The notes: a model not told the origin generated them from the sequence alone. 64,000 nucleotides of DNA from Deltaproteobacteria bacterium (GCA_016709225.1 JADJEE010000012.1:2243630-2307629); one strand, 5' to 3'. Shown: positions 2,092 to 28,696, counted from the first letter of the stretch. Program-made: numbers and translations.

Positions 2092-2092
2092 G

Positions 2093-4091: not shown

Positions 4092-4092
4092 G

Positions 4093-4770: not shown

Positions 4771-4926
4771 CGGTGCTCTGCTTGGGTGATCCGTCACCTG
4801 TCGCCGCGGGCACCGTGTCACCGACCTCGACGAGGTTCTACGGGTGTGGCGAGTGACGGCGGTGCGAGGCACCTCGCCATCGACTCGTCGCTTGCCTCCG
4901 TCCTGATCTCCCGGCATCGTCGAGCG

Positions 4927-5511
4927 GTGGTTCGCACCTTCGCGTTGCTCGGCATCCTCATCGCCGCATGCGACCGCTCCGAGCCGTCGCCGGCCGGCCA
5001 CGACCCCGCGTCGACGCCGACGGCCGACGAGCCGTGCGCGCGGGACGAGGACTGTGTGTTCGCGAGCGGCTGCTGCACCGGCTGCTCGTTCTTCAGTGGC
5101 CGCACCGCGAGCGCGCGCATGAGATCCGCGAGCGAACAGGCCAGCGAAGATCGCAAGTGCTGGCTGCGCGGATGGTTCGAGGACTGCCCGCATGTCGACT
5201 GCGCCTCGCCGCCGCCGTGTCGCCTCGATCTCGGCCCGGCGTGCGTGGAGGGCCGTTGCCGACCCCGCGCGACCGGGGTCGTGGGCGACGCCAACGATCG
5301 CTGTCGGGCCGACGCCTGCGGCGAGCCACCGGCGTTCACCGGCTCCGACTGCGATGACTTCGCCCAGGCGGCGTACGAGCGCTGCGCGTGCCTCGACGGC
5401 GGCGGCCCCTGCCCGCCGGAGATCTGGCGCGGCCTGTGTGCGGACGCCAGCCGCTGCGTGGGAGACTCGCCAGGCGTCGCGGTGACGCGCGCGACCGCCG
5501 ACTGCCCGTGA
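4927..5511 (+). CDS. Cys-rich secreted lipoprotein, hypothetical
   Basis: GTG start before the signal (VVRTFALLGILIAAC), many paired Cys. The start is uncertain; the track ORF begins at 4786. Confidence 0.45.
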   Translation: MVRTFALLGILIAACDRSEPSPAGHDPASTPTADEPCARDEDCVFASGCCTGCSFFSGRTASARMRSASEQASEDRKCWLRGWFEDCPHVDCASPPPCRLDLGPACVEGRCRPRATGVVGDANDRCRADACGEPPAFTGSDCDDFAQAAYERCACLDGGGPCPPEIWRGLCADASRCVGDSPGVAVTRATADCP

Positions 5512-5586
5512 TCGATGACGCCACGACCATGTGTGCGACGCCGCGGCGGGTGCGGGACGCCGCCCACGCGGCGAATGGTCGCTCGT

Positions 5587-6939: not shown

Positions 6940-8014
6940 CGTCGATGTCGACGCCGAACGAGGCAAAGATGGTCCCACAGTGCGGCTGCATCGGCGACGA
7001 GTGACACTCGACGCCGGGCCCCTCGCCGATGATTTCGAACGTCTTGGGGTCATAGATCGGCGCGAGGAAGTCCACCCCCTCGAGCGCGCGCCCGAGGTCG
7101 ACCGCGACCACACCGGTCGCGAGATCGAACCCGTCGAGGTCGACCTTCGGTGTGTTCAAGAATCCGCACGCGTCTTGGTTCTCGAGCGCGAGCTCGCCAT
7201 CCCCCGCGCAATCGGTGCTCCCGATGTGCAGGTAGCCGCCGCCCGCGACCGCCTCGGGGTCCTCCACGGAGAAGTTGAACACGAAGTGGCGGTAGCCGGT
7301 CGCCCACGACCAGTACATCTCGCCCAGCGGCGACGGAGCCGCCTCCGCGCTCGTGGTGTTGATGAGATCCTTCATCACGGCCTGCGGCACACCGACGTCG
7401 AAGCTGATCCGCGTCACGTCCGCGACCTGCGTCATGCCGGTGATCACGTCGTTCTCGCGCGCGGTGCCTTCGGCGAAGGCAATCGCGGAGGCTTCGCAAT
7501 CGCCTTCGGTGTTGCTGGTGAGATCGATGAGCGAGACCTGTCCGGCATCACTCGTGTACTGGAAGTCGTTGACGTCGAGCTCGACGGTCACCTCGCTGCC
7601 GTCGGCGGCGTACATGTGCAGGTTGCTGATGTAGAACCGCAGATCCGCTGGGCTCGCGGTGTGCTCGCCGTCGGGGCCGAGCCCGGTGATCGTGCTGCCG
7701 CAACCGACCTCTTCGCCGTTGGCGACCGCCGCGAACCGCAGGCTGAACGGCGCGAGCGCCTCGCCGGTCGTGCTTCCGCCGGAGCTGTCGAGCCCGGTCG
7801 GGTCGGTATCGCTCGTCGCCGTGGTGGCGCTGGTGGTGGTGGCGGTCGGGTCTGTCGTGGTCGTCGATGCGGTGGTCGCCGAGGTGCTCGACATCGTCGG
7901 ATCGCCGGTCGAGCCGTCGGCGTTCGTCGAAGTCTCCGCGTCGTCGCCACCGCAAGCGCCGAGGACCGCAGCAAACAAAAGGGTGGGCGCGAGTGTCCGG
8001 CAGTCCATCGTCAT
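6893..8014 (-). CDS. Four-Cys partner lipoprotein of the metallo-mystery pair (MbnP-like)
   Basis: Lipobox (LLFAAVLGACGG), long Thr-rich linker, conserved Cys/His/Met/Trp-rich domain. Immediately upstream of the di-heme peroxidase and overlapping it by 47 nt (23 nt with the 6915 start). This is the partner-then-peroxidase order seen in mbnPH-type pairs. Confidence 0.7.
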   Translation of the reverse strand: MTMDCRTLAPTLLFAAVLGACGGDDAETSTNADGSTGDPTMSSTSATTASTTTTDPTATTTSATTATSDTDPTGLDSSGGSTTGEALAPFSLRFAAVANGEEVGCGSTITGLGPDGEHTASPADLRFYISNLHMYAADGSEVTVELDVNDFQYTSDAGQVSLIDLTSNTEGDCEASAIAFAEGTARENDVITGMTQVADVTRISFDVGVPQAVMKDLINTTSAEAAPSPLGEMYWSWATGYRHFVFNFSVEDPEAVAGGGYLHIGSTDCAGDGELALENQDACGFLNTPKVDLDGFDLATGVVAVDLGRALEGVDFLAPIYDPKTFEIIGEGPGVECHSSPMQPHCGTIFASFGVDIDDGVSAADQDAVFAAQ

Positions 8015-8296
8015 GTGTCGCGACGCTAGCCAGGCCGACCGCGCGCCGCCAGCGAGAATGGGGGGGCGCGAAAATTCGCCACATGCCTGGTGCCGCGTAG
8101 GCTCGAGTCGCGCATTGGGCATCGCAGGTGTTCCGCGAGGTGTTCAAGACTTGGCCAGCGCCGCCGGAGGGTCGCGGTGGCTGCGATGCCGTCGCGAACA
8201 GCGATGCCTCCCGCGTGACAGATCCGCAACGGGCATTCTCCGCCGCGTGCGCTAACCTCGGCGGAGGTCCGCCTCCGACGGGCAGCGGGTAGGATC

Positions 8297-8787
8297 ATGC
8301 GAAGGACCCTCAAGTTCCTGCACGAGGTCGGCAGCGCGGGGCTCATGGGCGCCGTCGCGGCCCAGGCAATCCTGTCGTTCGCCGCCGACGGTCGCGGGCC
8401 GCTCGAGTACGCGGCGATGCGCCACGCGATCTTGCTGGTCTCCCAGTGGCTGCTGGTCCCGTCCCTGCTGGTCGTGCTCGTCAGCGGGCTCGCCGCGATC
8501 GCAGCCCACCACCCGTTCCAGAACGCCGGCTGGGCGTGGATGAAGCCGCCACCACCTTGCTGGTGCTCGAGGGCACGCTGGTCGCCCTGTCGGGCCCCGC
8601 ACAGGGGGCCGCGGTGGTCTCGGCCCGGATCGCCGCCGGTGAACCGGCCGACGCCGAGGAGCTCGCCGACTTCGTCCGTCACGAGCGCGGCGGCCTCGCG
8701 ATGATCGCGTTGCTGTCGATCGTCAACATCGCGCTGGCGGTGTGGCGCCCTCGATTCAAGCGAAGGACGCCGCCGCCGCCGGAGTGA
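8297..8787 (+). pseudogene. Small integral membrane protein carrying an apparent +1 frameshift near 8500-8530
   Basis: The frame from ATG 8297 (RBS GGGTAGGA) gives two TM helices to ...HHPFQNAGWAWMK. The +1 frame then continues as ...TTLLVLEGTLVALSGPAQGAAVVSA...MIALLSIVNIALAVW to a stop at 8787. Either a true frameshift or a sequencing indel. Confidence 0.4.
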
Positions 8788-8838
8788 GTCCGTCGTCGAT
8801 CGCGGCGCAGCTTGGTCTCGACCCGAAGGTGCCGTGCC

Positions 8839-9864
8839 TCAGCCGGCGGGACAGCTCGGCGCACGCAGAACTTCGACGGCTGCGGTGGCGCGATCGATGA
8901 CAGCGAGGCTGCCGGTCGGCGCGTCCAGCCGAACGACGACGATCGACCCCTCCGGCTGCCAGCCGACCAGCGATGCGTGCCGCTCGCGGGGCGAATCGAA
9001 CCACAGAGCGTCGAGCGAGTAGCGGGCGATCTCCGTGCCCGTCGACACGTCGAGCACGAGCAAGGTGTCGAGGCGATCGACCAGGAAAGCCCAGTGATCG
9101 CCGCCGAGCCACGCAGGCTCCGTCGCAATTCCACCTCGAGGCTCGTCGATGACGCTCGTGAGCCGGTTGCCGTGTCGGTCGTAGAGCCAGCTCCGCACGC
9201 CGGGCTCGTCGCAGCCCTCGAGCAACACGTACAACGTATCGCCCAGCCAAACGTGGCTCGCGCAGCGCAACTGCGGGTCGTCGAGCTCGAATGCGGCGAC
9301 TCGTCGGTGATCCCGGTACGCCCAGATCTCCGCGCTCGCGGGGCCGCTCTCGAAGGTGTTGGTGACGGCGAGAACGCTGCGTTGCGCGGTGCTGGTGACG
9401 TGGCGGTCGAGCACGCCACTGCGCGGAACGCCGACGCGCAGCACGAAGCCCAAGTCGTTGGAGACCACGCCATCGAGGTCGATGCGGTCGATCCACTCTT
9501 GCGGTGTCGCGGGGCGGACGGTGGCGAACGCCGCTTCTGGCACGCGCGCGTCGGTACGCTGGTACTGCTTGTCGGCGAGGTCGACGAGTACGAGCACGGG
9601 CGAGATGCCGTAGTTGAACTCCAGCCCGAGCTGCCCGTCGACGATTCTCCCCATTGCGACGGACTGCGCCTCGGGAACACAGTCGCCGCTCGCCGCTTCG
9701 GACCTCGCGGACGCGGAAGACCGCGGGGCGACGGGCTCCCCGGGGCGCACCGGTGCGACGTCGACGGGAGAGGCCCTGCGCTCGGTGCTTCCAACTCGAC
9801 AGCCCGCGCCGACCAAGAGCGCGATCGACAACGCCGCCCTGAGTGTCCGAGAACGCAGGTGCAT
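8839..9864 (-). CDS. Secreted lipoprotein, hypothetical
   Basis: Signal with lipobox (ALSIALLVGAGC) from ATG 9864. Protein-like composition. No family recognised. Confidence 0.5.
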   Translation of the reverse strand: MHLRSRTLRAALSIALLVGAGCRVGSTERRASPVDVAPVRPGEPVAPRSSASARSEAASGDCVPEAQSVAMGRIVDGQLGLEFNYGISPVLVLVDLADKQYQRTDARVPEAAFATVRPATPQEWIDRIDLDGVVSNDLGFVLRVGVPRSGVLDRHVTSTAQRSVLAVTNTFESGPASAEIWAYRDHRRVAAFELDDPQLRCASHVWLGDTLYVLLEGCDEPGVRSWLYDRHGNRLTSVIDEPRGGIATEPAWLGGDHWAFLVDRLDTLLVLDVSTGTEIARYSLDALWFDSPRERHASLVGWQPEGSIVVVRLDAPTGSLAVIDRATAAVEVLRAPSCPAG

Positions 9865-10148
9865 CCACGCCGCAACGTCCCGGCTCATCGCCGGCGAGCG
9901 TAGCCGTCTTGCTCCGCGGGTTCCACCGACGCCAGGGAAGCCGGATCGGCTCATTGCGGGTACCCGGCGCTCAGAGTCTGCATGTCGTGCCAGACCCGCG
10001 ACGCGAAGCGGAGCTCACGGGATGTGCGGCACCGTGAAGCATGTCCCGAATCCCGCACGGCGTGCTGGCCTCAGGTCTGACATGAGGACGAACGCGCCCG
10101 CGCCTGGGGTGGTGTCGGCGAGCACGCACTCGGATACGCTGCGGCCCC

Positions 10149-11048
10149 ATGATTCGCACGGGTTCTCCGGGCTGGCTTGCGTCGGTGACATTCGGCGCGC
10201 TCGCATGCGCTGCTCGTCCAGCCGGCATCCCCAACGGTGCGCCGCACCTCGCACGCTCGAATGCGGGCTTCGACGCCGAGCAGCAGTTGAACCGGGCCCG
10301 AGGTCCGCTCGAGCTCCAGGCACCACCCCAGGGCTGGTGGGAAGCCGAGCACGCGTGCCCCGCGGGCACGACGTTGCTCGTACAGGGGAGCGACTACGAT
10401 CCGGCGCACCCCGAGACCGCAAGCGACTTACCGCGCATCGGGTGTGTGCGGCCGGATGGCACACAACACGGGCCATCGACGATCTTCGCTCGCAACGGTG
10501 TCGCGATCCAGCAGGGCCACTACCGCAACGGGCGCCAGCACGGCACGTGGGAGGAGCACAGCGCCACGGAGCCCGACGACGGCGGACGCGAGTACTGGGA
10601 TGACGGAGTCGGGATCGGAACGTGGTCGAGCACGTTCGGCGGCAGAGAGCGGTTGCTCGAGCATCGCGGACCCGGCGAGATCCATCGAACGATCCGTGAA
10701 GAAGGCGCCGTCGTCGAGCAGGGCCTGCTGGTCGATGGCCTGCGTCAGGGCCCGTGGACGATCACCACCGATGGTGTCACGCGCGAGGTCGAGTTCGTCG
10801 ATGGACGGGCAGCCGGCGCATCCGCGTTGATCGCCGTGCAAGCATGCGACGACTTTCTCCGCCGCATCTCCGTTTGCTTGGAGAGCAAGTCGGGCGCCGA
10901 GCGCTACGAGCTATCCTCGCTCCTCATCTTGCTCGTCGACCTCTGGGAAGACTTCGGCCTCGAGGTCTCTCCAGGAAGGAGCGAGCCGCTGTGTGTCGTC
11001 AACGTGCGCAACACGCAGGACACACTCGCGGCGCACGGCTGCGAGTGA
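10149..11048 (+). CDS. MORN-repeat (YwqK-like) secreted protein
   Basis: Signal peptide. Repeated G..HG.W motifs (NGRQHGTWEEH, DGVGIGTWSST, DGLRQGPWTIT). Confidence 0.55.
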   Translation: MIRTGSPGWLASVTFGALACAARPAGIPNGAPHLARSNAGFDAEQQLNRARGPLELQAPPQGWWEAEHACPAGTTLLVQGSDYDPAHPETASDLPRIGCVRPDGTQHGPSTIFARNGVAIQQGHYRNGRQHGTWEEHSATEPDDGGREYWDDGVGIGTWSSTFGGRERLLEHRGPGEIHRTIREEGAVVEQGLLVDGLRQGPWTITTDGVTREVEFVDGRAAGASALIAVQACDDFLRRISVCLESKSGAERYELSSLLILLVDLWEDFGLEVSPGRSEPLCVVNVRNTQDTLAAHGCE

Positions 11049-11285
11049 CCGTCGTCGGTGACACGGGGAGCGAGTGCTGTCGTTCGGCGACACCCGCTCC
11101 CCATGTGCATCGTCACGCCCCCCTTGAACGCGAGCAACGGCCGCAGCCGTCGCACCGCGCGGGTCAGCTCCCGCTGCGCGCGCATCACCGCGCCGATGTC
11201 CTTGTACGCATCGGGGGCTTCCTCGACCAGCCGTGGCGCGACCCGGTGGTCGAACCACACGCCCTGCATCGATCGATGCAGCGAT

Positions 11286-12008
11286 CTAGCCGGCGATGAG
11301 CGCCATCATCTCGGGGTAGTGATACGTCGCGCTCGCGGCCGGATGGCGCTTGGCGGTGGCGACCATCGCCTTGGCGATCTGCTGCACCGTGATCGATTTG
11401 TACTTGGCCGGCGTCACGAACGAGAGCAGCGGCAGGGTCTTCTCGAGCAGCCACGGCGTGTGCTGCGAGCCGATGATCATGGCCGGCCGGAACACGCTGA
11501 CGATCGCAGGGCCACCGGCGCGCACCGCCTCCTCGGCCTCGCCCTTCACACGGCTGTAGCGCGCCATGCCGGCGGCACCGCTGCCGGTCGACTTGGCGGT
11601 GGGGTCGGCACCGGCGGCGCTCATGAATGCCAGGTGCTGCACCTTGCCGGAGTCGCGCAGCGCGCGGGCGAAGGCCTCGTTGAGCACGACATCGATCGCG
11701 CGGTGCTCGTCGAGGCTCAGCTTCGACGTGCCCGCACCGACGCCGAGCACACTGAACCCTTCGGCCTCGCCATCGATCACCTTCAACGCGTCCAGCGTTG
11801 CGGCCGCGAGCGACGCGGCGCTCATCTCCGGCACCAACACCTCGACCAGCCGTCGATCGCGGGCCTGTGCCATCGCGACGGCCTCGGGCAGCGATCGACG
11901 CGACAGCGTGATCACCGTGGCGAAGTCGTCGGCGAAGACCTCTTGCAAGAGCGCGGCGCCGACCGAGCCGGAGCCGCCCAAGACGATCGCTGTGCGTGGG
12001 CTGGGCAT
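11286..12008 (-). CDS. NAD(P)-binding Rossmann-fold oxidoreductase (HTATIP2/NmrA-like atypical SDR)
   Basis: N-terminal IVLGGSGSVGAALL Rossmann motif. 240 aa. Confidence 0.8.
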   Translation of the reverse strand: MPSPRTAIVLGGSGSVGAALLQEVFADDFATVITLSRRSLPEAVAMAQARDRRLVEVLVPEMSAASLAAATLDALKVIDGEAEGFSVLGVGAGTSKLSLDEHRAIDVVLNEAFARALRDSGKVQHLAFMSAAGADPTAKSTGSGAAGMARYSRVKGEAEEAVRAGGPAIVSVFRPAMIIGSQHTPWLLEKTLPLLSFVTPAKYKSITVQQIAKAMVATAKRHPAASATYHYPEMMALIAG

Positions 12009-12149
12009 CGCGTGGGGATGGTACGCCGGCTTGGCTGCGTCCGGGGCCGCCGGCCGACACTCGAAACGTCATCGGTCGGATCCCTCATCGGCCTGCGCCA
12101 GGGCTCATGGCAACCAGCGCTGGCATCTGCCGTGCGGCGCGCGATCGCT

Positions 12150-12581
12150 TCACCGCGGCCAGCCGACGAACCACGCCTCGCCGCTCACCCGCTCCCACGT
12201 GAGCGTGAAGCCGCCGGCGGTCACCTCCCACTCCGACCAGCCAGCGGTATGCATGCCGGCGAAGCGATAGCTCGTGACCGCGTCGGCACTGACTTGTCTG
12301 GCCTCGACGATCTCGCCGGACAGCGGCGCTGCGGCATCAGCATGCGCGACCCAGGCCTGCGCGGCATCGTCGAACAGGCGCGCGCGCTCGCCAGCGACGT
12401 CGCGCAGCAGCAGCACGCAAGGCTGCACGCACACCGCGGTCGGCTCGGGGTTGGCGGGGTGCTCGGCGCGCAGGTTGGCGTGGCCGAGTCGCAGCGAGAT
12501 GCCGTCGCGGGTGCGCTCGATCGCGAGGATCGGCGCGTCGTGCAGGTCGAGCAGGTCGAAGCGCTCGGACGTGGACGGCAT
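12150..12581 (-). CDS. Hypothetical protein
   Basis: ATG start, 143 aa, balanced composition. Divergent from 12613. Confidence 0.45.
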   Translation of the reverse strand: MPSTSERFDLLDLHDAPILAIERTRDGISLRLGHANLRAEHPANPEPTAVCVQPCVLLLRDVAGERARLFDDAAQAWVAHADAAAPLSGEIVEARQVSADAVTSYRFAGMHTAGWSEWEVTAGGFTLTWERVSGEAWFVGWPR

Positions 12582-12612
12582 CTCGTCGTGGCGATGCTAG
12601 CATCCCGCCGAC

Positions 12613-13242
12613 ATGGAACGCCCGTCGGACGACGCCGCACGCACGATGCTCGGACTCCCCATGGCCTACGTGCTGCCCGCGACCGACGTGATGATCTCGG
12701 AGGCGCGCCGCATCGTCGAGACCAACCTCGCGCTCGCGCGCGAGCTCGGCCCGCTCCAGCTGCCATCGCCGATCTGGGAGCGCAAGGGCAGCCGCGCGGG
12801 CGTACGCCTGGTGACGCTGCCCGCCGCGTTCGCGCAGCGCTACTTCACCGGGGGTGGCGCGCTCGTGCTCGGTAAGGATCGCGTGCGGACCTTGGTCGCC
12901 GAGCTCATGCCATGGATGGCCGAGGATCCCGCCGGTGCCGCGGTCGCACTCGAGGACACGCTCGAGGTGTGGACCACCGACGGCGCGCCGCTGCGCGAGC
13001 TCGAGTCGCCCTACGGCGGCCACTACAAGTTGTTGTCGCTGATGCTCGCCGACTTCGCGCGCAAGGCCGATGCCGGCCTCGACACCCTCGACTGGATCGC
13101 GTCGCTGGGGCTTCCGGTGGAGGAGTTCCGCGACGACGACGATCCCGACGCCGACGCGATCCTCGAGCGCATGGAGGCCCGCGTCGACGCGATGTGGGCC
13201 ACGGAGGACGCCTGGCTCGAGGCCGCCGCGCCGCGCCCCTAG
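12613..13242 (+). CDS. Hypothetical protein
   Basis: ATG start, 209 aa, acidic C-terminus. No family recognised. Confidence 0.5.
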   Translation: MERPSDDAARTMLGLPMAYVLPATDVMISEARRIVETNLALARELGPLQLPSPIWERKGSRAGVRLVTLPAAFAQRYFTGGGALVLGKDRVRTLVAELMPWMAEDPAGAAVALEDTLEVWTTDGAPLRELESPYGGHYKLLSLMLADFARKADAGLDTLDWIASLGLPVEEFRDDDDPDADAILERMEARVDAMWATEDAWLEAAAPRP

Positions 13243-13250
13243 AGCGTGCA

Positions 13251-13724
13251 TCACAGCGCGCGCACGTAGCCGCGGGTGCAGCGGGCACCGCGGATCTGCG
13301 CATCGTCGCGGACGAAGCCGTGTCGCTCGTAGAACGCGATCGCGGCCGCCATGCCCTCGATGGTGTCGAGCACGATGCGCTCGCCGCCGCGGGCCTTCAC
13401 CCACGCGACCGCCTCGTCGAGCAAGCGCTTGCCGACGCCCAGCCCGCGGGACGCGGCGCAGAGGTACATCTTGCGCAGCTCGAAGCTGCCCGGTGCGACC
13501 GGGAACACGCCGCAGGTGCCGACCAGCGTGCGTCGATCGCCCTCGACCTCGTGCGCCACCCAGAACGCACCCCCGTGATCGAGGTACGACGATGGCAGAC
13601 CACGCACCGCCTCGTCGGTCTCGCTACCGACGCCGAAATCGAGTCCGAACTCGGCGAGCACCGCGGTCACGTGCGCGACGACCTCGGGCACATCCGCGGC
13701 TTCGACCACCCGCACGACGATCAC
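13251..13724 (-). CDS. GNAT-family N-acetyltransferase
   Basis: Acetyl-CoA binding motif region (RGLGVGKRLL...A). 157 aa. GTG start. Confidence 0.8.
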   Translation of the reverse strand: MIVVRVVEAADVPEVVAHVTAVLAEFGLDFGVGSETDEAVRGLPSSYLDHGGAFWVAHEVEGDRRTLVGTCGVFPVAPGSFELRKMYLCAASRGLGVGKRLLDEAVAWVKARGGERIVLDTIEGMAAAIAFYERHGFVRDDAQIRGARCTRGYVRAL

Positions 13725-13769
13725 GGACGCGAAGGTAGCACGCCGCGACGCGGCCGCGCCTCCGCGAGC

Positions 13770-14858
13770 TCAGTTTGCCGGCGGCAGCGGCGTGCCGTCG
13801 TCCCACACGTTCGCGATCCACTGATTGCCCGGCCGCGTCTCGTCGAAGTCGGTGATCGGAAAGTAGTATCCACACTGCCCGCCGCGCCCGCGCTGGAACA
13901 CGTTCTCCTCGAACACGATGTTGTTGGCCTGGTCGCCGTAGGGCTTCGAGCCGTCGTCGCCGCTCGAGCCTCCGTACGCGCATGCACCCCCGGTGGTGGC
14001 CATGAACAAGTTGCGATGGATGGTGTTGTTCTGGATCGGCGCAAAGTCGCCGTAGCCCGTGAGATCGGCAGAGCAGCCGGCATCGGGCGGGAAGTCGGGC
14101 GCGTTGCAGAGGATCGAGTTGTGCTCGATCGTCGAGCCGTCGCCCATGCGCACCGCGGACTCGTGGGCGGTGCCGGTCGGATCGGGCGCCTGATCGTGGA
14201 TCCACGAGTCGGTCACGCTGCACGCGAATTCGCACCACACGCCCCGCTTGCCGCCGTAGACGTCGACGCGCGTGGCGGTGAAGTCGCTCTTGCCGATGCC
14301 GCTGTCGTCGTCGGTGCCCTGCACGGGGCCCGCGTCGATCTCGCTGTCGGAGATCGCGAAGGAGTAGCCCATGCCGGGCGCCTCCACCAACACGCTGCCG
14401 TTGATCTTGGTGCGCGTGATCCGAACGTCGGCCGCACGGATGACGAGGGGATCACACGTCACCGACTTCGCATCGATCTCGGTGCCGTTCTGCGTGATCG
14501 TGCATTCGCCGTCATAGTCGGTGAGCGTCGTGCCCGCGGGGATGCCCGTGCGCGTCGCATCGGGCCAGCATCCGCCGAACGGGTCGGGGCCTCCCGGCGT
14601 GTTGGCGGGTGCGTCGCACGGCAGCGAAGCTCCACCGCTGTCGCCGCTGCTGCCTTCACCACCCTCGCTGGCGTCGCCCGAGCTGCCCGCGCCGGTGCTC
14701 CCGCCCTCGCTCCCACCGCCGCCGGAGGTGCCGCCGCTGGTCGCGGTGACCACCGCGCCGCCGGTGGTGTCGGCCTCGGTGCCGGTCGCCGGCCCGCTCG
14801 ACGGGCAGCCGAGGATCAGCCATCCGAACCACACGGAGCGACGATGCACGTTCGACAC
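13770..14858 (-). CDS. Secreted lipoprotein, probable right-handed beta-helix protein
   Basis: Lipobox (LILGC). Gly/Ser/Thr linker. Repetitive N..I / asparagine-ladder-like segments (NNTIHRN, NNIVFEEN). Confidence 0.6.
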   Translation of the reverse strand: MSNVHRRSVWFGWLILGCPSSGPATGTEADTTGGAVVTATSGGTSGGGGSEGGSTGAGSSGDASEGGEGSSGDSGGASLPCDAPANTPGGPDPFGGCWPDATRTGIPAGTTLTDYDGECTITQNGTEIDAKSVTCDPLVIRAADVRITRTKINGSVLVEAPGMGYSFAISDSEIDAGPVQGTDDDSGIGKSDFTATRVDVYGGKRGVWCEFACSVTDSWIHDQAPDPTGTAHESAVRMGDGSTIEHNSILCNAPDFPPDAGCSADLTGYGDFAPIQNNTIHRNLFMATTGGACAYGGSSGDDGSKPYGDQANNIVFEENVFQRGRGGQCGYYFPITDFDETRPGNQWIANVWDDGTPLPPAN

Positions 14859-14951
14859 CTCAGCACGCTATCACCCGTCCGCACGCGCCGTCGAGGAATC
14901 CCGTGCCGGGGCGCGCCCTCGACTGCGGACGAATGCAATCTCGGTCCGCCG

Positions 14952-15953
14952 TCACTGCGTCCCGCGATGGCCCGCGTCGCCGCGAACGGCGACTTCGAGA
15001 TCCGGCAACCCATCGAGTGCGGCATCCACCGGGTCCGCCGCCACCGCCGACGGCGCGGGTGCGATGACCTTCAGCGCGCGTGGCAACGCCGTCAGCGTCA
15101 CCGGCGTCTCGCCGAAGGGCTCGCCGTCGAGCAGGATCTGCTGCCGTGGATCCGTGCGAATCGTGACGGTCGACGACGCGAGCGAGCCGACGTTGTCGCG
15201 GTTCGCGGGCTCCCCCTCGAGCGCGCTGCGGTAGAGGTGCCACGTCGTGGCAACCGCCTCGCTGATGCCCTCGGCGGCGACGATGGTCGTGTCGAGCAGG
15301 CCGTCGTCGGGCACGAGGTGAGACGGGCCCTGGGCCATCATGGCGCGCGGCGGCGCAATGTTGGCCACGCCGACGCCGATCGATCGACAGCGAATCTCGT
15401 GTGCGTCCGACGTGATTTCGACGGCGAACGACGCGAGGCTCGCGAGCTGACGCAGCGCCGAGCCCACGTACGCGAGCACGCCCCAGTGTTGCTTCGACTC
15501 GACCGTCGCGGACGCGATGGTGTCGGCGTGGATGCCGATCATGCAGTGCAAGATCATCGTGCGCTTGCCGGCCTCGGCCTCCGCCACGCCGACGTCGATC
15601 GTGCGCGTCGGGGCCGACTCGAGCAGCGCGATCGCCTCGTGGAGATCGCCCGGAATGCCGAGCGCGACCGAGAACGAGTTCGACGTGCCCATCGGCAGCA
15701 CGCCGAGCGCTGGTCCGTTCTCACCCAGGCCGAGCTCGAGCAGCGCAGCGGCCACCGCCGACACCGTGCCATCGCCGCCGGCCGCGACGATGCGATCGGG
15801 CTGCGATCGCAGGCAGTGCCGCGCGCGATCGACAGGGTCCTCGTCCTCGCCGAGCTCGCACACCGTCACGCCCTCGAGCTTGGCGCGCGCCTCGTCGAGC
15901 AGCTCTGCGGTCGCACGCGAAGCCCGCGGGTTCCACACCAAGATCGTCGTCAC
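14952..15953 (-). CDS. Diacylglycerol-kinase catalytic-domain lipid kinase (YegS/BmrU-like)
   Basis: DAGK_cat signature (IVAAGGDGT) and GTSNSF loop. GTG start. Confidence 0.8.
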   Translation of the reverse strand: MTTILVWNPRASRATAELLDEARAKLEGVTVCELGEDEDPVDRARHCLRSQPDRIVAAGGDGTVSAVAAALLELGLGENGPALGVLPMGTSNSFSVALGIPGDLHEAIALLESAPTRTIDVGVAEAEAGKRTMILHCMIGIHADTIASATVESKQHWGVLAYVGSALRQLASLASFAVEITSDAHEIRCRSIGVGVANIAPPRAMMAQGPSHLVPDDGLLDTTIVAAEGISEAVATTWHLYRSALEGEPANRDNVGSLASSTVTIRTDPRQQILLDGEPFGETPVTLTALPRALKVIAPAPSAVAADPVDAALDGLPDLEVAVRGDAGHRGTQ

Positions 15954-16081
15954 GCGGGCATGCTACCCGAGTCGACGACAAGCGCACGCAGGCGGCACGG
16001 CGCGCGAACCCGCCGGCGAGCGCGAGGCGTCGACGCCGTGACCGAGCCGACGACCAGACCGCGTGACCGAGCGCCCGCGTC

Positions 16082-17251
16082 TCACATGCAGCAGTAGGTG
16101 ATCGCGTCGGTCGGCGCCACGCCGCCGACGAGCGATCCGCCCGACGGGGTGCAGCTGGCGTCTGGCTCGGGATAGTAGGTCGCGTGGCTCGCCGCGGGCT
16201 GGACGGCACACGTGCCGGGCGAGGCGTCACCGAGGTAGATCACGCCGCAGCCTTGGTTGTTGAGCTCGACGTACCCGCCGCAGCTTCCGGTCGGCGTGCC
16301 GCAGCTGCACGCGGTGCAGTCGCGATCATCGTCGAGGTCGCCATACGTGATCACCTGCTGCGACCACGGCCCGGGCGGACATGCGGCCTCGCCGGCGGCC
16401 CAGATGCACATCTGATGAGCATCGGGCGTGCTCGGCAGACAGCCGCCGCCGTCGCAGCCCTCGGCAATCGCCGCGCTGCAGCTGCGAACGTCGCGGCCCC
16501 AGGTGGGCGCGGGGATCGACTCGGTCGCCTCGGGGTCACAGCTCGCGCCGCCGATCTGCAGGCTCGGCGTGCTGATCGCGTAGGTGCCGGCGGCGTTGCT
16601 GACGAACGTGCACACGTTGGGCTGGAGCACGTCCGCGAGGCCTTGGCTCGCGGTGCACATCGCGTTGGTCTGCTGCACGGTCACCGCGCCGCAGCTCACG
16701 CCCACCGCGTCACCGCACTCGCAGCCGCACGTGGCGTTGCCGGGCGAGAGCTCCGCGTGTTGATCGCCGTGCACGAGCTGCGGGAAGTCGGCGGGACACG
16801 GGTCGGCGTCGGCGCCCTCGTTGATCACCACCGGTCCCTGCCAGCCGCCGGGCACATCGGGCGCACACTGGCCGGCGCACACCGGACCGCCGCTGTCGCC
16901 CGAGGTGTTGCCGTCGTCGCCGGACGAGGTCGACGGGCCGGTCGCGGTCGGGTCGGTCTCCGAAGCGGTGCTCGAGCCTCCCGTCGACCCGTCGGTGTCG
17001 GACGAGGCTCCCGTCGGATCGCCGGACGAGGCTCCCGTCGGGTCGCCGGACGAGGCTCCCGTCGGATCGCTGGTCGCCGTGTTGCCGGTGCCGGCGGTCG
17101 ACGCCGTCGTCGATGCGGTCGTCGCCGAGCTCGAGGACTCGTCGCCCGAGGTCGGCGCGCCGACGGTGCTCTCGGCCGAGGTGCCGGTGGGATCGAAGCA
17201 GGCGGGAACGAGGGCGAGCAAGCCGGCACAGGCGATCGAGGCGCGTGACAT
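16082..17251 (-). CDS. Cys-rich secreted lipoprotein with a Thr/Ser linker and a tandem peptide repeat
   Basis: Lipobox (LLALVPAC). About 30 Cys in the C-terminal domain. Three copies of DPTGASSG. Confidence 0.6.
   Translation of the reverse strand: MSRASIACAGLLALVPACFDPTGTSAESTVGAPTSGDESSSSATTASTTASTAGTGNTATSDPTGASSGDPTGASSGDPTGASSDTDGSTGGSSTASETDPTATGPSTSSGDDGNTSGDSGGPVCAGQCAPDVPGGWQGPVVINEGADADPCPADFPQLVHGDQHAELSPGNATCGCECGDAVGVSCGAVTVQQTNAMCTASQGLADVLQPNVCTFVSNAAGTYAISTPSLQIGGASCDPEATESIPAPTWGRDVRSCSAAIAEGCDGGGCLPSTPDAHQMCIWAAGEAACPPGPWSQQVITYGDLDDDRDCTACSCGTPTGSCGGYVELNNQGCGVIYLGDASPGTCAVQPAASHATYYPEPDASCTPSGGSLVGGVAPTDAITYCCM
16997..17068. repeat. 3 x 24-nt perfect-to-near-perfect tandem repeat (encodes DPTGASSG x3)
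   Basis: Unit gccggacgaggctcccgtcggatc repeated three times on the plus strand, inside the linker of 16082-17251. Confidence 0.7.
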
Positions 17252-17342
17252 GCCCCCGAAGACCGCGGCCGCGGCGGTTCTGATCACACCGCGGGGTGGG
17301 TTTTCGGCTTGCCGAGCGAACGGCCACGCGGGCGGCCGCCGG

Positions 17343-18788
17343 TCAGCGATCCCCATCCGCGAGCGATTCGCCGCCACGCCCCATCGCGACGTCGGCGGCG
17401 GCACGAACCATCGAGGTTGCCGCCGCGGGCTCGGGCGCGTGCGGTGCCTCCGTATCCTCGGGCATGTGCGGCCCGTGACGCACCTTCTCGTTCACCACCA
17501 CCAGCCACAGGGCGAAGAGCGCCAGATAGATCACCGCGAACATCACCAGCGACACCATCACCTGGTCGGCATCCACGGCGACGGAGTTGGCATCGCGCGT
17601 CCGCAGCAGTCCGTACACCACCCACGGCTGGCGACCGACCTCGGCGGCGACCCAGCCGCCCTCGTTGGCGGCGTAAGGGCCGAGCACCGCGAGCACGAAG
17701 ATCCACAACAGCCACCGCTGCTGCCACAGCACACCGCGCCACCACAGCACGCACGCCAGCGACGTGAGGCCGATGAACGCGGTGCCGAGCATCGCCATGA
17801 CGTGGTACGCGAGAAACGGGATCACGACCGGCGGGCGCTCGTCCTCGGGCACGCGATCGAGCCCGGCGACCGGCGTGTCGAAATCCTCGTGGATGAGGAA
17901 GCTGAGCATGCCGGGGATCGCGATGCCACCGCGGACCCGCTGTGCGTCGACATCGGGCCAGCCGACGAGGTACATCGGCGCACCGCCTTCGCCGGTCACG
18001 AAGTGGCCCTCGAAGGCGGCGAGCTTCGCGGGCTGGTGGCGCGCGACCATGTTGGCCTGTGCGTGCCCGGACACCAGCTCGCCCCACGACGCCAGCGTGG
18101 CGATGACGAGCCCGATCGCGAAGCTGCGCCGGGCGAAGCCGACGTGGCGCCCCCGCAGCAGGTACCACGCGCTGATGCTCATCACGAAGAAGCCACCCAG
18201 GATGAACGCGCCCAGCAGCACGTGATTGAGCCGGTGCACGGTCGAGGGGTTGAAGACCATCGCCCAGAAGTCGGTCACCTCGACGCGCGCGGCGCCATCG
18301 TGCACCACGAGGCGGTGCCCGGCCGGCGTCTGCTGCCACGAGTTGGCGATGATGATCCACACCGCGGAGAACGTGCTGCCGAGGAACACCATCACGGTCG
18401 CGAAGAAGTGCATGCGCCGCGACACGCGGTCCCAGCCGAACACCAGCACCGCGAGGAAGCCCGACTCGAGGAAGAACGCGAAGATGCCCTCGGCCGCCAG
18501 CGCCGAGCCGAACACATCGCCGACGAAGCGCGAGTAGGTGGCCCAGTTGGTGCCGAACTGGAACTCCATCACGATGCCGCTGGCGACCCCGACCGCGAAA
18601 TTGACGGCGAAGATGCGGGTCCAGAAGCGAGCCATCGCCTCGTATGCGGCGTCGCCGGTGCGCAGCGCAAAGCCCTCGATCACGACCATCACCAGCCCCA
18701 AGCCGATCGAGAGCGGCGGGAACAGGTAGTGGAACATGATCGTGAACGCGAACTGGATCCGCGACAGCAGGACGACGTCGAGATCCAC
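17343..18788 (-). CDS. cydA: Cytochrome bd-type quinol oxidase subunit I
   Basis: N-terminus [23 protein letters not shown] matches the CydA consensus (E. coli MLDIVELSRLQF...). Q-loop and 9 TM helices. GTG start with GAGGTG 7 nt upstream. Confidence 0.85.
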
Positions 18789-18798
18789 CGCGATCACC

Positions 18799-19863
18799 TC
18801 ACTTGTCGAACAGACCGTCGAGGTCCTCGCGCCGCGCACCCTTGGCGTCGCAGACCGCGAACTGGCCCCCGGGATAGAGCGCCGCGCCGCCGTAGCGACC
18901 GCCGCGATCGACCGCGTAGAAGTTGACGTTGAAGTCGGGCCGCCCATCCGCGCGCAGCAATCGCTTGGCGCGGGTGGTCTCGACGATGCGCTTGCATGCG
19001 GCCATGCACGCGTCCTTGGGGTGCTTGCCCGCGCGGATGAACTCGACCACCGTGTGACTGCCGGCGCTGACGATGTTGGCCTCGCCACGCCCGGTGCTGC
19101 CGGCCGCGCCGACGAGGTTGTCGACGAACAGACCCGCGCCGATGAGCGGCGAGTCGCCGACGCGACCGGGGATCTTGAATGCGAGCCCGCTGGTGGTGGT
19201 GACACCGCCGAGGTCGCCGTTGCGATCGACGCCGCAGCAGTTGATGGTGCCGGTGATGCCGAAGTGCGCCTTGACATCGGCGGGCACGTCCTTGCCGGTC
19301 TTGGGCAGCCAGTCGTCGCGATCGGACAGCGTCGACTTCCAGTACAGCCAGATCTCGCGCGCCTCGGGCGTGAGCAACTCCTGCTCGACGAAGCCGTGGG
19401 CGTTGGCGAACGCGCGCGCGCCCTCGCCCGACAGCAGCACGTGATCGGTGTAGCGCAGCACCGCCAGTGCGACCTGGCTGGGGTTCTTGATCCGTCGCAG
19501 CGAGCACACCGCGCCCGCCAGACCGCTCGGTCCATCCATGACCGAGGCGTCGAGCTCGACCTCGCCGTCTTCGTTGGGCAGGCCGCCGAGGCCGACGCTG
19601 TGATCGTTGGGATCGTCCTCCACCAGTGTCACGCCCTTCACCACCGCGTCGACCACCGGTGCACCGTCGAGGATCGCCTTCATCGCGGTCTCGACGCAGG
19701 CGGGATGACCGTTGGCGGAGGCGACCACGACCGGGTGCTTGGGCTTGCGCAGCACCGCCGGCGCGGCCGCACTGGCGCCGCGGCTGGGCGGCGCCATCAG
19801 GCAGCCGGAGCCGAGCACCATCGACGATCGGAGCAGGAAACCGCGGCGTCGCAATCGGGGCAT
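18799..19863 (-). CDS. Ntn-hydrolase isoaspartyl peptidase / L-asparaginase (aspartylglucosaminidase-like), Tat-exported
   Basis: Twin-arginine signal ([14 protein letters not shown]). Autoproteolytic G-T nucleophile region ([14 protein letters not shown]). Stop is 10 nt before the cydA start. Confidence 0.8.
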
Positions 19864-19894: not shown

Positions 19895-22810
<2,916 letters not shown>

Positions 22811-23084
22811 CGGGCGCAATGGACGGGCTCGAACGGCCCCCCGGGAGGGCGACGCAGCGCCCCGCCGGTACCCGATCGAATGGCCAGTCTATCAGTCGCC
22901 CCCACCGACGTCGGCGGCCCGGCCGCTCGTGGGGGCCCTGGCCGTCGACCTGCTCCGCACGCTCGCCACCCCCATCACGACCACGAAATCGCCAACCATC
23001 GACACCCCTGCGGGGTCCGGCCTACCCTCGCGCGCCGAGGCCGCGGCGACGCACGTCCCTTCCCACGGCAGAAGAGGTTCGACC

Positions 23085-24287
23085 ATGCTTGCGAAGTTTC
23101 TGACGCGCTCTGTTTTCTCGTGCATCGGGCTCACGCTCGTTGCGTCCGGTTGTGAAAAGCAGCAGACCACCCCGCCGCCCAGCGATCCGGTCGCGACCGC
23201 GCCGGCCAAGCCACCGGCGAAGCCGATCCCCGATGGCTTCTTCACGCTGACGCCGCAGCTGACCGTCAACGATGTCGACGCCGCGATCGCGTTCTACACC
23301 ACCGCGCTCGGCGCCCAGAAGCTGTTCACACTGCCCGGCGCCGACGGCAAGACGATGCACGGCGAGATCAAGATCGGCGACTCGATCGTGATGATCGACG
23401 CCGAGAACCCGCAGGGCAAGTCGCCGCTGACGCTCGGCGGCACGCCGGCGACGCTGATGGTCTATGTCGAGAAGGTCGACGAGACCTACGCGGCCGCGCT
23501 CGCAGCCGGCGCGAAGCAGGAGCAGCCGGTGCAGGATCAGTTCTGGGGCGATCGCTACGGCGAGCTCAGCGATCCGTTCGGACACCGCTGGGCGCTCGCG
23601 ACCCACGTCGAGGACCTGACGCCCGAGCAGATGCAGCAGCGCAGCGCCCTGGTGATGGCCGAGATGGCGCCGCCGGCCAAGGGCAAGAAGAAGAAGAAGG
23701 CCAAGAAGGGCGCGCCGCCGGTGTGGAAGGCGGTCGCAGGCACGCCCGCGACGCAAGCCGTGCCCGCGCCGTACCACACCGTGACCGTGGCCTACACCCT
23801 CGACAACGCTGCGGCCGCGATCGAGTTCTACAAGACCGCCCTGGGTGCACAGGAGCGCGATCGCATGGCGATGCCCGACGGTCGCATCATGCACGCCGAG
23901 ATCTCCATCGGTGACTCGTTCCTCATGCTCTCCGACGAGATGCCGGGCATGTCGAAGTCGGCCAAGACCCTCGCGGGCTCGCCGGTGGCGCTGATGCTCT
24001 ACACGCCCGACGTCGACGCCGCGATGACGACCGCGACCGGTGCCGGTGGCACCGCGGTGATGCCGGTCAGCGACATGTTCTGGGGCGATCGCTACGGCGC
24101 GATCGTGGATGTCGCGGGCTACCTGTGGGGCATCGCCACGCACAAGGAAGACCTGACGCCCGAGGAGATCGCCGAGCGGGCCAAGGCAGCGATGCCGCCG
24201 GCCGCAGCCGAGACCGCGCCCGCGCCCGCGCCCGCGGCTGCGCCCGCCGGGGCCGAGACCGCCGCCGCGCCGACGCCCGCGAGCTGA
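23085..24287 (+). CDS. Lipoprotein with two tandem VOC/glyoxalase-fold (PhnB-like) domains
   Basis: ATG 23085 with GAAGAGG RBS. Lipobox (LTLVASGC). Two repeats of the ~130-aa domain (...AIAFY.TALGAQ...GDRYG...) separated by a KGKKKKKAKKG linker. Confidence 0.8.
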   Translation: MLAKFLTRSVFSCIGLTLVASGCEKQQTTPPPSDPVATAPAKPPAKPIPDGFFTLTPQLTVNDVDAAIAFYTTALGAQKLFTLPGADGKTMHGEIKIGDSIVMIDAENPQGKSPLTLGGTPATLMVYVEKVDETYAAALAAGAKQEQPVQDQFWGDRYGELSDPFGHRWALATHVEDLTPEQMQQRSALVMAEMAPPAKGKKKKKAKKGAPPVWKAVAGTPATQAVPAPYHTVTVAYTLDNAAAAIEFYKTALGAQERDRMAMPDGRIMHAEISIGDSFLMLSDEMPGMSKSAKTLAGSPVALMLYTPDVDAAMTTATGAGGTAVMPVSDMFWGDRYGAIVDVAGYLWGIATHKEDLTPEEIAERAKAAMPPAAAETAPAPAPAAAPAGAETAAAPTPAS

Positions 24288-24456
24288 GCCCTCGCGAACT
24301 GTTCGCACGACGCCCGTGCAACTTGCCCAAGGCCCGCGTGATCCCGAGTCGATCGCGCGGGCCTTCGCGCGTGGCAGCGGAGCACGATCGCAGGAAGATC
24401 GCGTGCGGACTCCGTACCCGTGATTCGGGGCACACCGGTTGCAGTCCAGTGCGTCC

Positions 24457-25914
24457 ATGCGGAAGCGATCGATCATGGAGACCCTGTGGTGCGCATGCCT
24501 GGGACTCGTCGCGGCGGCCGGCTGCAGCGCGGCGAGCTTGCAAGGCGACGACCACGGCGGCGCGTGCCGATCGCCGGCAGGCTGCGTCGGTGACGACGCC
24601 GGCACCAGCGGTGCGAGCGGCTGGGATCCCGCCGACGACAGCAGCGACGGCAGTGGAGCCGCAACCGGCGGCGACGAGGCGACCTCGTCCGAGCCACCAC
24701 GAGGGCCGCAGCTGCCGTGCGACGTCGCGGCCGCGCTGTCGCGGGCGTGCGGCGAGTGCCACGGCGACACGCCGGCCTACGGCGCCCCGATGTCGCTGGT
24801 GGACTTCGATGACCTGCACGTGCCCGCGCCGACCGACCCCACCCGCTCGGTGTTCGATCTCGTCGGCGAGCGCATCACCGCCGACACGAAGATGATGCCA
24901 CCCGACGACGACATCACCGACGCCGAGCGGGCCGCGTTGTTGTCGTGGATCGAGGCCGGCGCACCGGCAGATCCCGACGCCCAGTGCGGCGATCTCCCGC
25001 CGCCCGACGATGGCCCCGACGTCGGCCCCGAGGCGCTGCCGTGCGAGACCAACTTCGAGGTGCGTGCACACGCGCCCGGCGGCCAGGGTGGCTTCCAGGT
25101 GCCAGCGCAGGGCGCCGACGATCTCTACCAGTGCTTCGCCTTCAAGGCGCCGTTCACCGAGCCTCGGCAGGCGGTCGCGTGGGCCCCGATCATCGACGAC
25201 GAGCGCGTCGTGCACCACTGGATCCTCTACCGCACGCCGTCACCGCAGGAGGACGGCGGTGTGTTCCCCTGCGATGTCTCGCTGCAGGTCTCGGCGGAGT
25301 TCGTCGCGGGCTGGGCCCCCGGTGGTGGCAACGTGCTGATGCCCGAGGGCGTCGGCCTCGAGCTCGGCGATCCCAACGACTGGTACGTGCTGCAGGTCCA
25401 CTACCACAACACCGCGCACCACCAGGACGCCGTCGACGCCAGCGGCGTGGCCTTCTGCATGCCGGACGAGCCGCGCCCGCAGACCGCCGGCGTGCTCACC
25501 CTCGGCACCACGAGTCTGAACATCCCCGCCGGCGCGGTTGCCCACGAGGAGACCGGCAACTGTGGCGGGCTGCTGACGCTGTTCTGGCCCGGCGACCTGC
25601 ACATCATCGGGAGCTCACCGCACATGCACGAGCTCGGCCGTGGCTTCCACACCGAGCTGGTGCGCGCCGGCGGCGTCACCGAGGTCGTCACGGACGTGCC
25701 GGTGTTCAACTTCGAGAGCCAGGGCATGTACTTCAACACGCCCGAGATCGTGGTGCACCCCGGCGAGTCCCTGCGCACTACCTGCGTCTTCGACAACCCC
25801 GGCGCCGAGATGGTGCACTTCGGTGAAGGCACCACCGACGAGATGTGCTTCAACTTCGTGCTCGCCTACCCCATCCAGCAGCTCAACAATCGCAACTGCG
25901 GGATCGTGTTCTAG
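24457..25914 (+). CDS. Secreted lipoprotein: N-terminal c-type heme motif fused to a PHM/DBH-like type-II copper monooxygenase fold
   Basis: Lipobox (LVAAAGC). CGECHGD (CxxCH). Then HHWILY, H.H and HMH...M spacing, like the CuH/CuM ligand sets of peptidylglycine monooxygenase. Confidence 0.75.
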   Translation: MRKRSIMETLWCACLGLVAAAGCSAASLQGDDHGGACRSPAGCVGDDAGTSGASGWDPADDSSDGSGAATGGDEATSSEPPRGPQLPCDVAAALSRACGECHGDTPAYGAPMSLVDFDDLHVPAPTDPTRSVFDLVGERITADTKMMPPDDDITDAERAALLSWIEAGAPADPDAQCGDLPPPDDGPDVGPEALPCETNFEVRAHAPGGQGGFQVPAQGADDLYQCFAFKAPFTEPRQAVAWAPIIDDERVVHHWILYRTPSPQEDGGVFPCDVSLQVSAEFVAGWAPGGGNVLMPEGVGLELGDPNDWYVLQVHYHNTAHHQDAVDASGVAFCMPDEPRPQTAGVLTLGTTSLNIPAGAVAHEETGNCGGLLTLFWPGDLHIIGSSPHMHELGRGFHTELVRAGGVTEVVTDVPVFNFESQGMYFNTPEIVVHPGESLRTTCVFDNPGAEMVHFGEGTTDEMCFNFVLAYPIQQLNNRNCGIVF

Positions 25915-27304: not shown

Positions 27305-28696
27305 TCACGGGAACGGCGACGTATAGGTGGTGCGGGTCGGCAGGCCGGTCTCGGTGCGGTAGCTGTTCTCGGCGGCGACCGTCGAGTACTCCTCGTGGTT
27401 CACCCACCGGCTGTCCCAGCCATGCTCGGAGTTGGTCGCGAGCTGGCGACTCGCACCCTCGGAGTGGTTCGCCGCGTGGTTCATCTCGTGGAAGAGAATC
27501 GCGTCCGAGCTGGTGCCCGGCGCGGGATGGGCGTGGCCGCCGGCGGCCCACGGATTGGCGGGGTGGTTGGCCCAGTTCGAGGGCATGTGCTCGACGGTGG
27601 TCGGCGCCCCCGGCATGCGCAGGCCCGTCGGCGTGTCCATGAACGCGTCCCAGTTGCCGTGATGATCGGCGACGGCGTTGAGCGGGCCGTTCGCGCCGTG
27701 GTACGGCACGATCGTCACCGGCTTGCCCGCGCGTTCGATCCGCTCGAGCGCCTCGCGACCGGCCCGCGTCCGCGCCATGCGTTCGAGATCGCGGGTGACG
27801 TCGTCGGCCCAGCCGGTCGGCGCACCGTGGGGGCTCACGTGCACGTGCTGCAAGTTGCGCACGTAGCGAGCCGCGGTCAGGCGCCGGAACACCGAGCCGC
27901 CCACGCGGAACAACGCCTTGAAGCCCTGGGCGATCGCGAGGCTGAACAGCGACGGGAACGGGATACCGCCGACCACCACGTTCGCCGAGCCCGGGCCGAC
28001 CGTGGTGCCGATCATCGGCCCCATCGGCGGATCGCTGGGCTTCGGCGACGAGAAGGTGCAGTGCTTGGTGATGTCGACCGCGAGCCGAGCCGCGCGCGCG
28101 CCCTCGATCCACACCGACGACGAGCCCAGGAAGATCTCGAACATCGGGAAGTAGCCACCGCACCAGATGCCGAGGCCCATGTCGCCGCAGCGGGCGGCCG
28201 CGCGAGCGTTGACCATGACCGTCGAAGCGCCCGAGAGGATCGGAATCGGGATGATCGGGCCCATGCTCGGCAGCGGGATCGGCACGGGATTGGGCGGCGT
28301 CAGGTTGGGCGGGTGGTTGTGCGCGTGGGGTAGCCCGACGTCGAGGTCCCACATGCGCAACGCCGGGAACGCAGGGAACGCAGGCAGGCCGAGCGCGTCG
28401 GCGATCTGGCCCATGGTCTGGGTGATCGCCATCTCGACGTGGATCGCCGCCTGCACGCCCGCGGCCAGGGTCGCGAGCACACCACCACCACCGCCGGCGT
28501 GACCATCGGCGCCCGCCGGGCCACCGGCCTCGCCGCCGCCGGAATCGGCGTGGCCCGACGCGCGGCCGGCCGCAGCGACCGTGACCCCGCCGGCACCCGA
28601 TCGACCGGCGTTGACCGTCGCGCGCTCGCCCCACTGCGAGTACAGCTCGGCGGCACGCGAGAAGCGGATGTTCGACAGATGATCGAGCACGCCCAT
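27305..28696 (-). CDS. PAAR-like (DUF4150) protein with a C-terminal HExxH domain (putative T6SS-delivered toxin)
   Basis: ATG 28696 with GGAG RBS. Two PAAR-type motifs (NARAAARCGDMG, GARAARLAVDITKHC). Pro-rich linker. C-terminal HEMNHAANH. Confidence 0.7.
   Translation of the reverse strand: MGVLDHLSNIRFSRAAELYSQWGERATVNAGRSGAGGVTVAAAGRASGHADSGGGEAGGPAGADGHAGGGGGVLATLAAGVQAAIHVEMAITQTMGQIADALGLPAFPAFPALRMWDLDVGLPHAHNHPPNLTPPNPVPIPLPSMGPIIPIPILSGASTVMVNARAAARCGDMGLGIWCGGYFPMFEIFLGSSSVWIEGARAARLAVDITKHCTFSSPKPSDPPMGPMIGTTVGPGSANVVVGGIPFPSLFSLAIAQGFKALFRVGGSVFRRLTAARYVRNLQHVHVSPHGAPTGWADDVTRDLERMARTRAGREALERIERAGKPVTIVPYHGANGPLNAVADHHGNWDAFMDTPTGLRMPGAPTTVEHMPSNWANHPANPWAAGGHAHPAPGTSSDAILFHEMNHAANHSEGASRQLATNSEHGWDSRWVNHEEYSTVAAENSYRTETGLPTRTTYTSPFP

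Follow-up and report, generated by a model that had tools for sequence, protein, structure and literature searches.

The window, by which we mean the whole stretch of 64,000 nucleotides analyzed here (Deltaproteobacteria bacterium, GCA_016709225.1 JADJEE010000012.1:2243630-2307629), has about 70% G+C, and the proteins closest to those it encodes come from MAGs named as Nannocystaceae or Myxococcota. The gene at issue, cydA, encodes subunit I of a cytochrome bd quinol oxidase and has an asparaginase-family gene and a kinase gene upstream and a lipoprotein gene downstream. The features on which the analysis turns are listed below, the last of them in virtual window coordinates obtained by tiling the window with two further contigs, L177 and L092.

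1-17342: in-window half of a 34,315-bp block that intervenes between cydA and cydB
14952-15953, minus strand: DAGK/YegS-type kinase gene
16082-17251, minus strand: Cys-rich lipoprotein, 389 aa, 26 Cys, with the lipoprotein signal LLALVPAC
17343-17365, minus strand: operon breakpoint at the new cydA stop codon, the end of homology to intact cydAB operons
17343-18788, minus strand: cydA, cytochrome bd quinol oxidase subunit I, GTG start, 481 aa, PF01654
18789-18798, minus strand: spacer of 10 nt between the asparaginase-family stop and the cydA GTG, read from the sequence
18799-19863, minus strand: Ntn hydrolase of the Asparaginase_2 family with a Tat-type motif (PF01112, 198 bits)
19895-22819, minus strand: Ser/Thr kinase with TPR repeats (Pfam Pkinase and TPR_12)
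-16973 to -17989 (virtual), minus strand: cydB

A preliminary description of this DNA had taken cydA to be full length with a canonical N-terminus, and both points hold. The product scores 546.7 bits with PF01654, for which the cut-off is 26.2, and covers the profile from end to end (positions 1-418 of 418), which secures the assignment as CydA, and its N-terminus lines up with those of homologues in the alignment. Two in-frame GTG codons are found in this region, at 18797 (1 nt past the upstream stop) and at 18788 (10 nt past it), and the NCBI start calls for cydA differ, giving proteins of 464 aa and 534 aa; the homologue alignment favors the GTG at 18788. The NCBI MAG proteins MBK6922529.1, MBK8235269.1, and MBK8716413.1 are identical to the window CydA over their 464 aa, and a fourth MAG CydA, MBP7287867.1, differs by one residue. 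The heme ligands that the preliminary description had named, H19, H186, M393, and E99 (E. coli numbering), are all canonical in the window CydA; together with E445, which is also present, they are invariant among 120 homologues. The alignment further shows that E107, S140, W441, and R448 are kept, as are both quinol-site residues, K252 and E257, and that the Q-loop, whose length had been left undecided, is of the short type, without the insert of about 65 residues found in E. coli. Over the 187 columns conserved in at least 95% of sequences, the window CydA is off consensus at one, compared with a mean of 1.8 across 119 homologues, and this single off-consensus residue is common to sister sequences that do have cydB. 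No frameshifts or stops were found in the window cydA. A scan for sigma-70 promoters and terminators around the gene returned nothing usable.

Directly upstream, the asparaginase-family gene ends with a TGA at 18799-18801, and the cydA GTG follows at 18788 after exactly 10 nt, a gap that had been described before and that the sequence confirms. The same 10-nt gap is present in two related loci, L003 and L004, and a gap of 54 nt in a third, L006. The conservation of the 10-nt spacing in L003 and L004 makes co-transcription of the asparaginase-family gene and cydA plausible. The upstream product had been called an isoaspartyl peptidase/asparaginase. Its placement among the Ntn hydrolases stands on the PF01112 match, but its best solved relatives are the glycosylasparaginases 9gaf and 1p4k (E 4.6e-64, about 5e-64), whereas the comparison with the E. 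coli-type isoaspartyl peptidase reaches only about 1e-32. By sequence similarity, glycosylasparaginase rather than isoaspartyl peptidase is thus the nearest relative of the enzyme. In the glycosylasparaginase comparison the nucleophile threonines align, i.e., the Thr of GT/TIN with the Thr of HD/TIG, and the autoproteolytic nucleophile Thr is invariant in four orthologues of the asparaginase-family enzyme. When read from the sequence, the ATG at 19863 is followed by a twin-arginine motif, RRRGFLL, which is kept in L006; some gene callers place the start of this gene beyond the motif.

Two further observations concern the region upstream of the kinase gene. A Cu2_monooxygenase-family gene (PF01082/PF03712; peptidylglycine/dopamine beta-monooxygenase type) adjoins a double glyoxalase/VOC gene (24424-25914 and 22686-24287, respectively, both on the plus strand). 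Cu2_monooxygenase is an animal-type enzyme family and unexpected here, and both L003 and L096 show synteny with the window over these two genes. Farther upstream, the gene at 27305-28696 on the minus strand has faint matches to PAAR and Peptidase_M91, an assignment taken solely from the Pfam calls precomputed for contig L096.

Downstream of cydA, the preliminary description had placed a Cys-rich lipoprotein where subunit II is expected, and this is what the sequence holds: the gene at 16082-17251, with its lipoprotein signal and 26 Cys, opens the block by which cydA and cydB are now parted. The 389-aa product has no hydrophobic segment past its signal peptide and no match in Pfam or NCBIfam. 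Likewise, the earlier statement that no hydrophobic ORF lies between 16082 and 17343 agrees with our finding of no multi-TM ORF in any frame between 16000 and 17343. Searching the whole 64-kb window by tblastn with the CydB proteins of E. coli and of the two closest relatives yielded no cydB (best E 0.26), and tblastn with CydA found one copy, i.e., no second cydA-like gene in the window. Among the related cydAB loci described below, the lipoprotein gene is present in L005 and in no other. The Cys-rich lipoprotein is not a CydB substitute.

For comparison, we gathered 89 related cydA loci, drawing on contigs of metagenomes, MAGs, and GTDB genomes. Of these, 86 reach far enough past cydA to be informative, and all 86 have cydB there, directly adjoining in 85 and behind one inserted gene in L022; two further related loci stop within 60 nt of cydA and were left out of the 86. 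The sole other exception is L005, an ENA contig from an independent assembly and a different sample, which has 97% nucleotide identity to the window and the same cydA-lipoprotein junction. The junction is also present in L096, an NCBI MAG contig that is 99.99% identical to window positions 7343-28788. The absence of an adjacent cydB is exceptional, with no other such split among the 86 related loci. The nearest relatives, L003 (from GCA_019694555.1), L004, and L006 (CydA about 79% identical), all have the order kinase, asparaginase-family gene, cydA, cydB, and in the nearest intact operons the cydB ATG overlaps the cydA stop as TGATG. A further locus, L002, has the kinase and cydAB without the asparaginase-family gene. 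Among GTDB representatives the best CydA match is 73%, and a GTDB scan found one cydA of this clade per Nannocystaceae-like genome.

Two of these loci show features of their own. In L022 (Deltaproteobacteria MAG JAYVCF010000181.1), a gene for a 384-aa VWA-like lipoprotein lies at 7373-8527 between cydA and cydB; this insert of 1.16 kb is a smaller, independent interruption of cydAB in an unrelated MAG. We considered whether a lipoprotein might be a recurrent accessory of the bd oxidase and rejected this, as the L022 and window lipoproteins share only the signal peptide (E 0.022 over 13 residues). In L005, positions 9065-9768 (at about window position 13766) hold about 700 bp that the window lacks, including a 221-aa gene, and the identity between the window and L005 falls from 97% to 91% past about window position 13766.

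The point at which the operon was broken can be placed closely. By blastn, the window is collinear with L003 from position 22709 down to 17362, i.e., from the kinase gene to the end of cydA. The homology to L003 ends at the window cydA stop, so the break took about 8 tail codons and everything beyond; in the junction alignment, what is lost is the last approximately 8 codons of the non-conserved cydA tail together with the TGATG overlap. A tblastx comparison of the L006 downstream flank with the window gave only high-GC noise.

The preliminary description had allowed that cydB might lie elsewhere in the genome, and an intact cognate copy does lie 34.3 kb downstream of cydA, outside the window. 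A search with the L003 CydB led to a protein cluster (P0122) at 79% identity, which includes MBP7287361.1. The connection to the window runs through contig L177, which we reached by looking up the FAD monooxygenase gene at the low end of the window (719-1894) and which is 100% identical to window positions 1-2113 and, at its other end, to positions 1-2309 of L092. In this tiling, which consists of contigs of sibling MAG assemblies with overlaps that are 100% identical rather than of one closed sequence, 34,315 bp separate the cydA stop from the cydB ATG, which is downstream, on the same strand, and about 17 kb past window position 1, with about 37 called genes in both orientations in between. 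The numbering of the MAG proteins agrees independently with this count: the CydB and CydA accessions are 38 apart in one pair (MBK6922491.1/MBK6922529.1), 37 in the next (MBK8716450.1/MBK8716413.1), and 38 in the third (MBK8235231.1/MBK8235269.1). As judged from the members of the protein clusters, four MAGs carry both genes, the fourth pair being MBP7287361.1 and MBP7287867.1, and the longest contig listed is the same 3.67-Mb contig for both the CydA and the CydB proteins. In addition, the MAG GCA_020050275.1 contains both L096, with cydA, and L092, with cydB.

Around the distant cydB, five contigs (L091-L095) have the order TetR, FAD monooxygenase, a 676-aa gene, a 171-aa lipoprotein gene, cydB, a dps-like gene, and a P450 gene on the opposite strand, with no cydA upstream of cydB in any of them. 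The junction of the 171-aa gene with cydB, with a gap of 36 nt, is seen in all five. In L092, the 36 nt before the cydB ATG end in GGAGG...TGATG and align to the cydA 3' tail of L003 and L006. No synteny was found between the cydB flanks in L092 and the flanks of intact operons, and a JGI metagenome scan with the L092 ADH added only about 2.5 kb on the cydB side (L097), which stops short of the window. The Dps/ferritin-like gene lies at L092 11072-11539, on the same strand and 54 nt past cydB; as it comes directly after cydB, the two genes, one for an oxidase subunit and one for an oxidative-stress protein, may share a transcript.

Nothing in the intervening DNA points to a mobile element. The 34-kb block contains no tRNA, the precomputed Pfam gene calls show no integrase or transposase domains in it, its junctions have no direct or inverted repeats beyond chance 7-9-mers, and GC is uniform at 0.67-0.72, the same in the block as in the flanks, with no compositional shift. 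On these grounds we rejected a mobile-element insertion. A model in which an inversion had carried cydB to the high side of the window, on the opposite strand, is ruled out by the tiling of the window, L177, and L092.

Going from cydA toward cydB, the genes of the block include those for the Cys-rich lipoprotein, DAGK, MbnP, Sel1, AKR, AraC, ADH, and rhomboid and, at the cydB end, the 676-aa and 171-aa genes. Window positions 1767-2093 and 3328-4113 form a partial duplication, with 98-99% identity, of the 3' end of an FAD-monooxygenase gene and of parts of TetR; one of the FAD-monooxygenase/TetR duplicates is reduced to fragments, and the sibling contigs L177 and L178 end in or beside the repeats. 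A 121-aa fragment matching RtcB, apparently from a truncated gene, lies at about 10900-11270 (L096 17520-17885). An MbnP-family gene (PF20243), taken from the precomputed L096 Pfam calls only, lies at 6893-8122 on the minus strand.

To judge whether the distant cydB is the original partner of the window cydA, we compared the divergence of the two genes. The distant CydB has 338 aa and scores 256.8 bits with the cydB equivalog model TIGR00203 (cut-off 117.3). Its best matches are the CydB proteins of L003 and L006, at 78.4% and 77.8% identity, and in tblastn the window CydA has 78.8% and 79.0% identity to the CydA proteins of the same two operons. Over 83 intact operons, identities to the window CydA and identities to the distant CydB correlate with r = 0.79. 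Both genes also show similar constraint. For cydA, dN/dS between the window and L005, neither of which has an adjacent cydB, is 0.084 (34 synonymous and 9 non-synonymous changes), within the range of 0.066-0.156 given by genes near cydA in the same comparison; for cydB, dN/dS is 0.092 (22 synonymous and 6 non-synonymous) between a pair of strains, each with the split arrangement. No rate acceleration of CydA was detected, as its outgroup distances are not above those of cydB-linked sisters. Given the matching identities, the correlation, the retained GGAGG...TGATG, the TIGR00203 match, and the purifying selection, the distant cydB is, as judged from sequence, the original and orthologous partner of the window cydA.

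In our interpretation, the window cydA encodes subunit I of a canonical cytochrome bd quinol oxidase and is one half of a cydAB operon that was split; we give this reading a probability of about 0.85. The ancestral order would have been kinase, asparaginase-family gene, cydA, and cydB, with the TGATG overlap between the last two. Some 37 ordinary chromosomal genes, about 34.3 kb in all, now part cydA from cydB in this lineage; cydA has stayed beside its upstream neighbors, and cydB has kept its old ribosome-binding region (GGAGG) at the new site. The two genes would now be on separate transcripts, that of cydA probably shared with the asparaginase-family gene and that of cydB possibly with the 171-aa lipoprotein gene and dps, and CydA and CydB would join in the membrane to form a normal CydAB oxidase. 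The preliminary description had offered two readings, a split operon or a different partner or role for CydA. The split operon is the one that stands, with the cognate cydB 34.3 kb away and matching CydA in its phylogenetic profile; the canonical residues and the lack of a rate shift speak against a different partner or role. The preliminary description had itself named such a cydB, together with canonical residues, as what would refute anything beyond a simple split operon.

An alternative is that CydA is an orphan that needs no CydB or has some other protein as its partner. It might then be a b558-only quinol-oxidizing cytochrome, for instance, or work jointly with the neighboring lipoprotein or with the asparaginase-family enzyme. 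The separation of cydA from cydB, its position 10 nt past the gene of a putatively periplasmic hydrolase, and the purifying selection on a cydA without an adjacent cydB speak for this alternative. Nevertheless, the cognate cydB is present in the same genome, where it is intact, co-diverged with cydA, and equally constrained, and in CydA the ligands of hemes d and b595 are retained, as are all other conserved sites, with no shift in rate. As to the proposed partners, the lipoprotein is a soluble protein of no known family whose gene accompanies cydA at no other locus apart from L005, and the adjacency of asparaginase-family gene and cydA coexists with cydB in sister lineages. We regard an orphan CydA as improbable. 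Similarly improbable is the idea that CydA pairs with the CydB of a second bd/CIO operon elsewhere and that the distant cydB is incidental; the genome coverage here, only about 85 kb, leaves room for such an operon, but purifying selection acts on the distant cydB too, which is the orthologous partner of the window cydA, and the GTDB scan points to a single cydA of this clade in genomes of the Nannocystaceae-like type.

If instead cydB had recently been deleted, cydA would be a relic on its way to becoming a pseudogene. In line with this, there is no cydB or remnant of it within 64 kb, and the cydA tail is about 8 codons short. The selection acting on cydA, its conserved sites, and the cydB tiling refute this reading, however, and we hold it to be very improbable: the substitutions accumulated between the two strains since the split are predominantly synonymous, the gene has no frameshifts or stops and deviates at only 1 of the 187 conserved sites, and cydB was relocated, not deleted. 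The chance that the absence of cydB is an artifact of assembly or binning, such as a chimeric join at the 3' end of cydA, we consider close to negligible. The MAG origin of the sequences and the breaks of several sibling contigs at repeats near 2-4 kb of the window speak for it; the cydA-lipoprotein junction, however, recurs in the window, L005, and L096, and the junction of the 171-aa gene with cydB recurs in each of L091-L095. A variant of the split-operon reading, which we would call a long shot, is that the split uncoupled expression of the two genes, so that CydA, co-transcribed with the glycosylasparaginase-like enzyme, may sometimes be present in excess or independently and may have a role of its own beside CydAB (e.g., as a b558 quinol-oxidizing cytochrome).

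The split cydAB operon is thus a rare gene arrangement for an ordinary enzyme, and no new respiratory enzyme or partner protein is indicated. It provides a small, clean natural case of a translationally coupled oxidase operon broken exactly at the gene junction, with the halves 34 kb apart. As both halves are under purifying selection at this distance, operon linkage and translational coupling are not required for that selection in this lineage. The case also calls for caution, in that a scan limited to a window can make an obligate two-subunit enzyme seem orphaned when its partner is just outside.

Among known systems, the archaeal CydAA' oxidases (qOR4a/qOR4b), in which a CydA paralogue replaces CydB, resemble this locus in having a subunit I without an adjoining cydB. 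In contrast to them, the window CydA clusters with bacterial cydAB operons, and a true cydB is present in the genome. As Murali et al. (bioRxiv 10.1101/2021.01.16.426971) classify the bd oxidases, K252 and E257 mark the quinol-oxidizing qOR families, and the presence of both residues places the window CydA among the quinol-oxidizing clades. With no second cydA-like gene in the window and a true CydB partner, the system is not of the CydAA' kind, and the CydB-pairing families remain. L022 is comparable in that foreign coding DNA, with a lipoprotein gene at its start, breaks up a myxobacterial-type cydAB; it differs in that the insertion amounts to one gene of 1.16 kb, with a lipoprotein unrelated to that of the window except in the signal peptide.

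An engineered precedent is reported from E. coli, where, to judge from the title of Newton & Gennis 1991 (ref 321 in PMC6616624), cytochrome d oxidase assembles in vivo when its two subunit genes are on separate plasmids. That system, as represented by this citation, shares with the window the encoding of the subunits in trans; it is engineered and has the long Q-loop, whereas the split described here is natural and chromosomal, and assembly of its two products is predicted. The remaining comparison is with the canonical short-Q-loop cydAB oxidases (qOR1-3). Unlike in the canonical operon, the window cydA and its cydB are neither adjacent nor translationally coupled and lie 34.3 kb apart. In every other respect compared, the genes are like those of the canonical oxidases, with a full PF01654 domain, the heme ligands, K252 and E257, and a CydB that passes TIGR00203, and their nearest relatives are the ordinary operons of Nannocystaceae and other Myxococcota.
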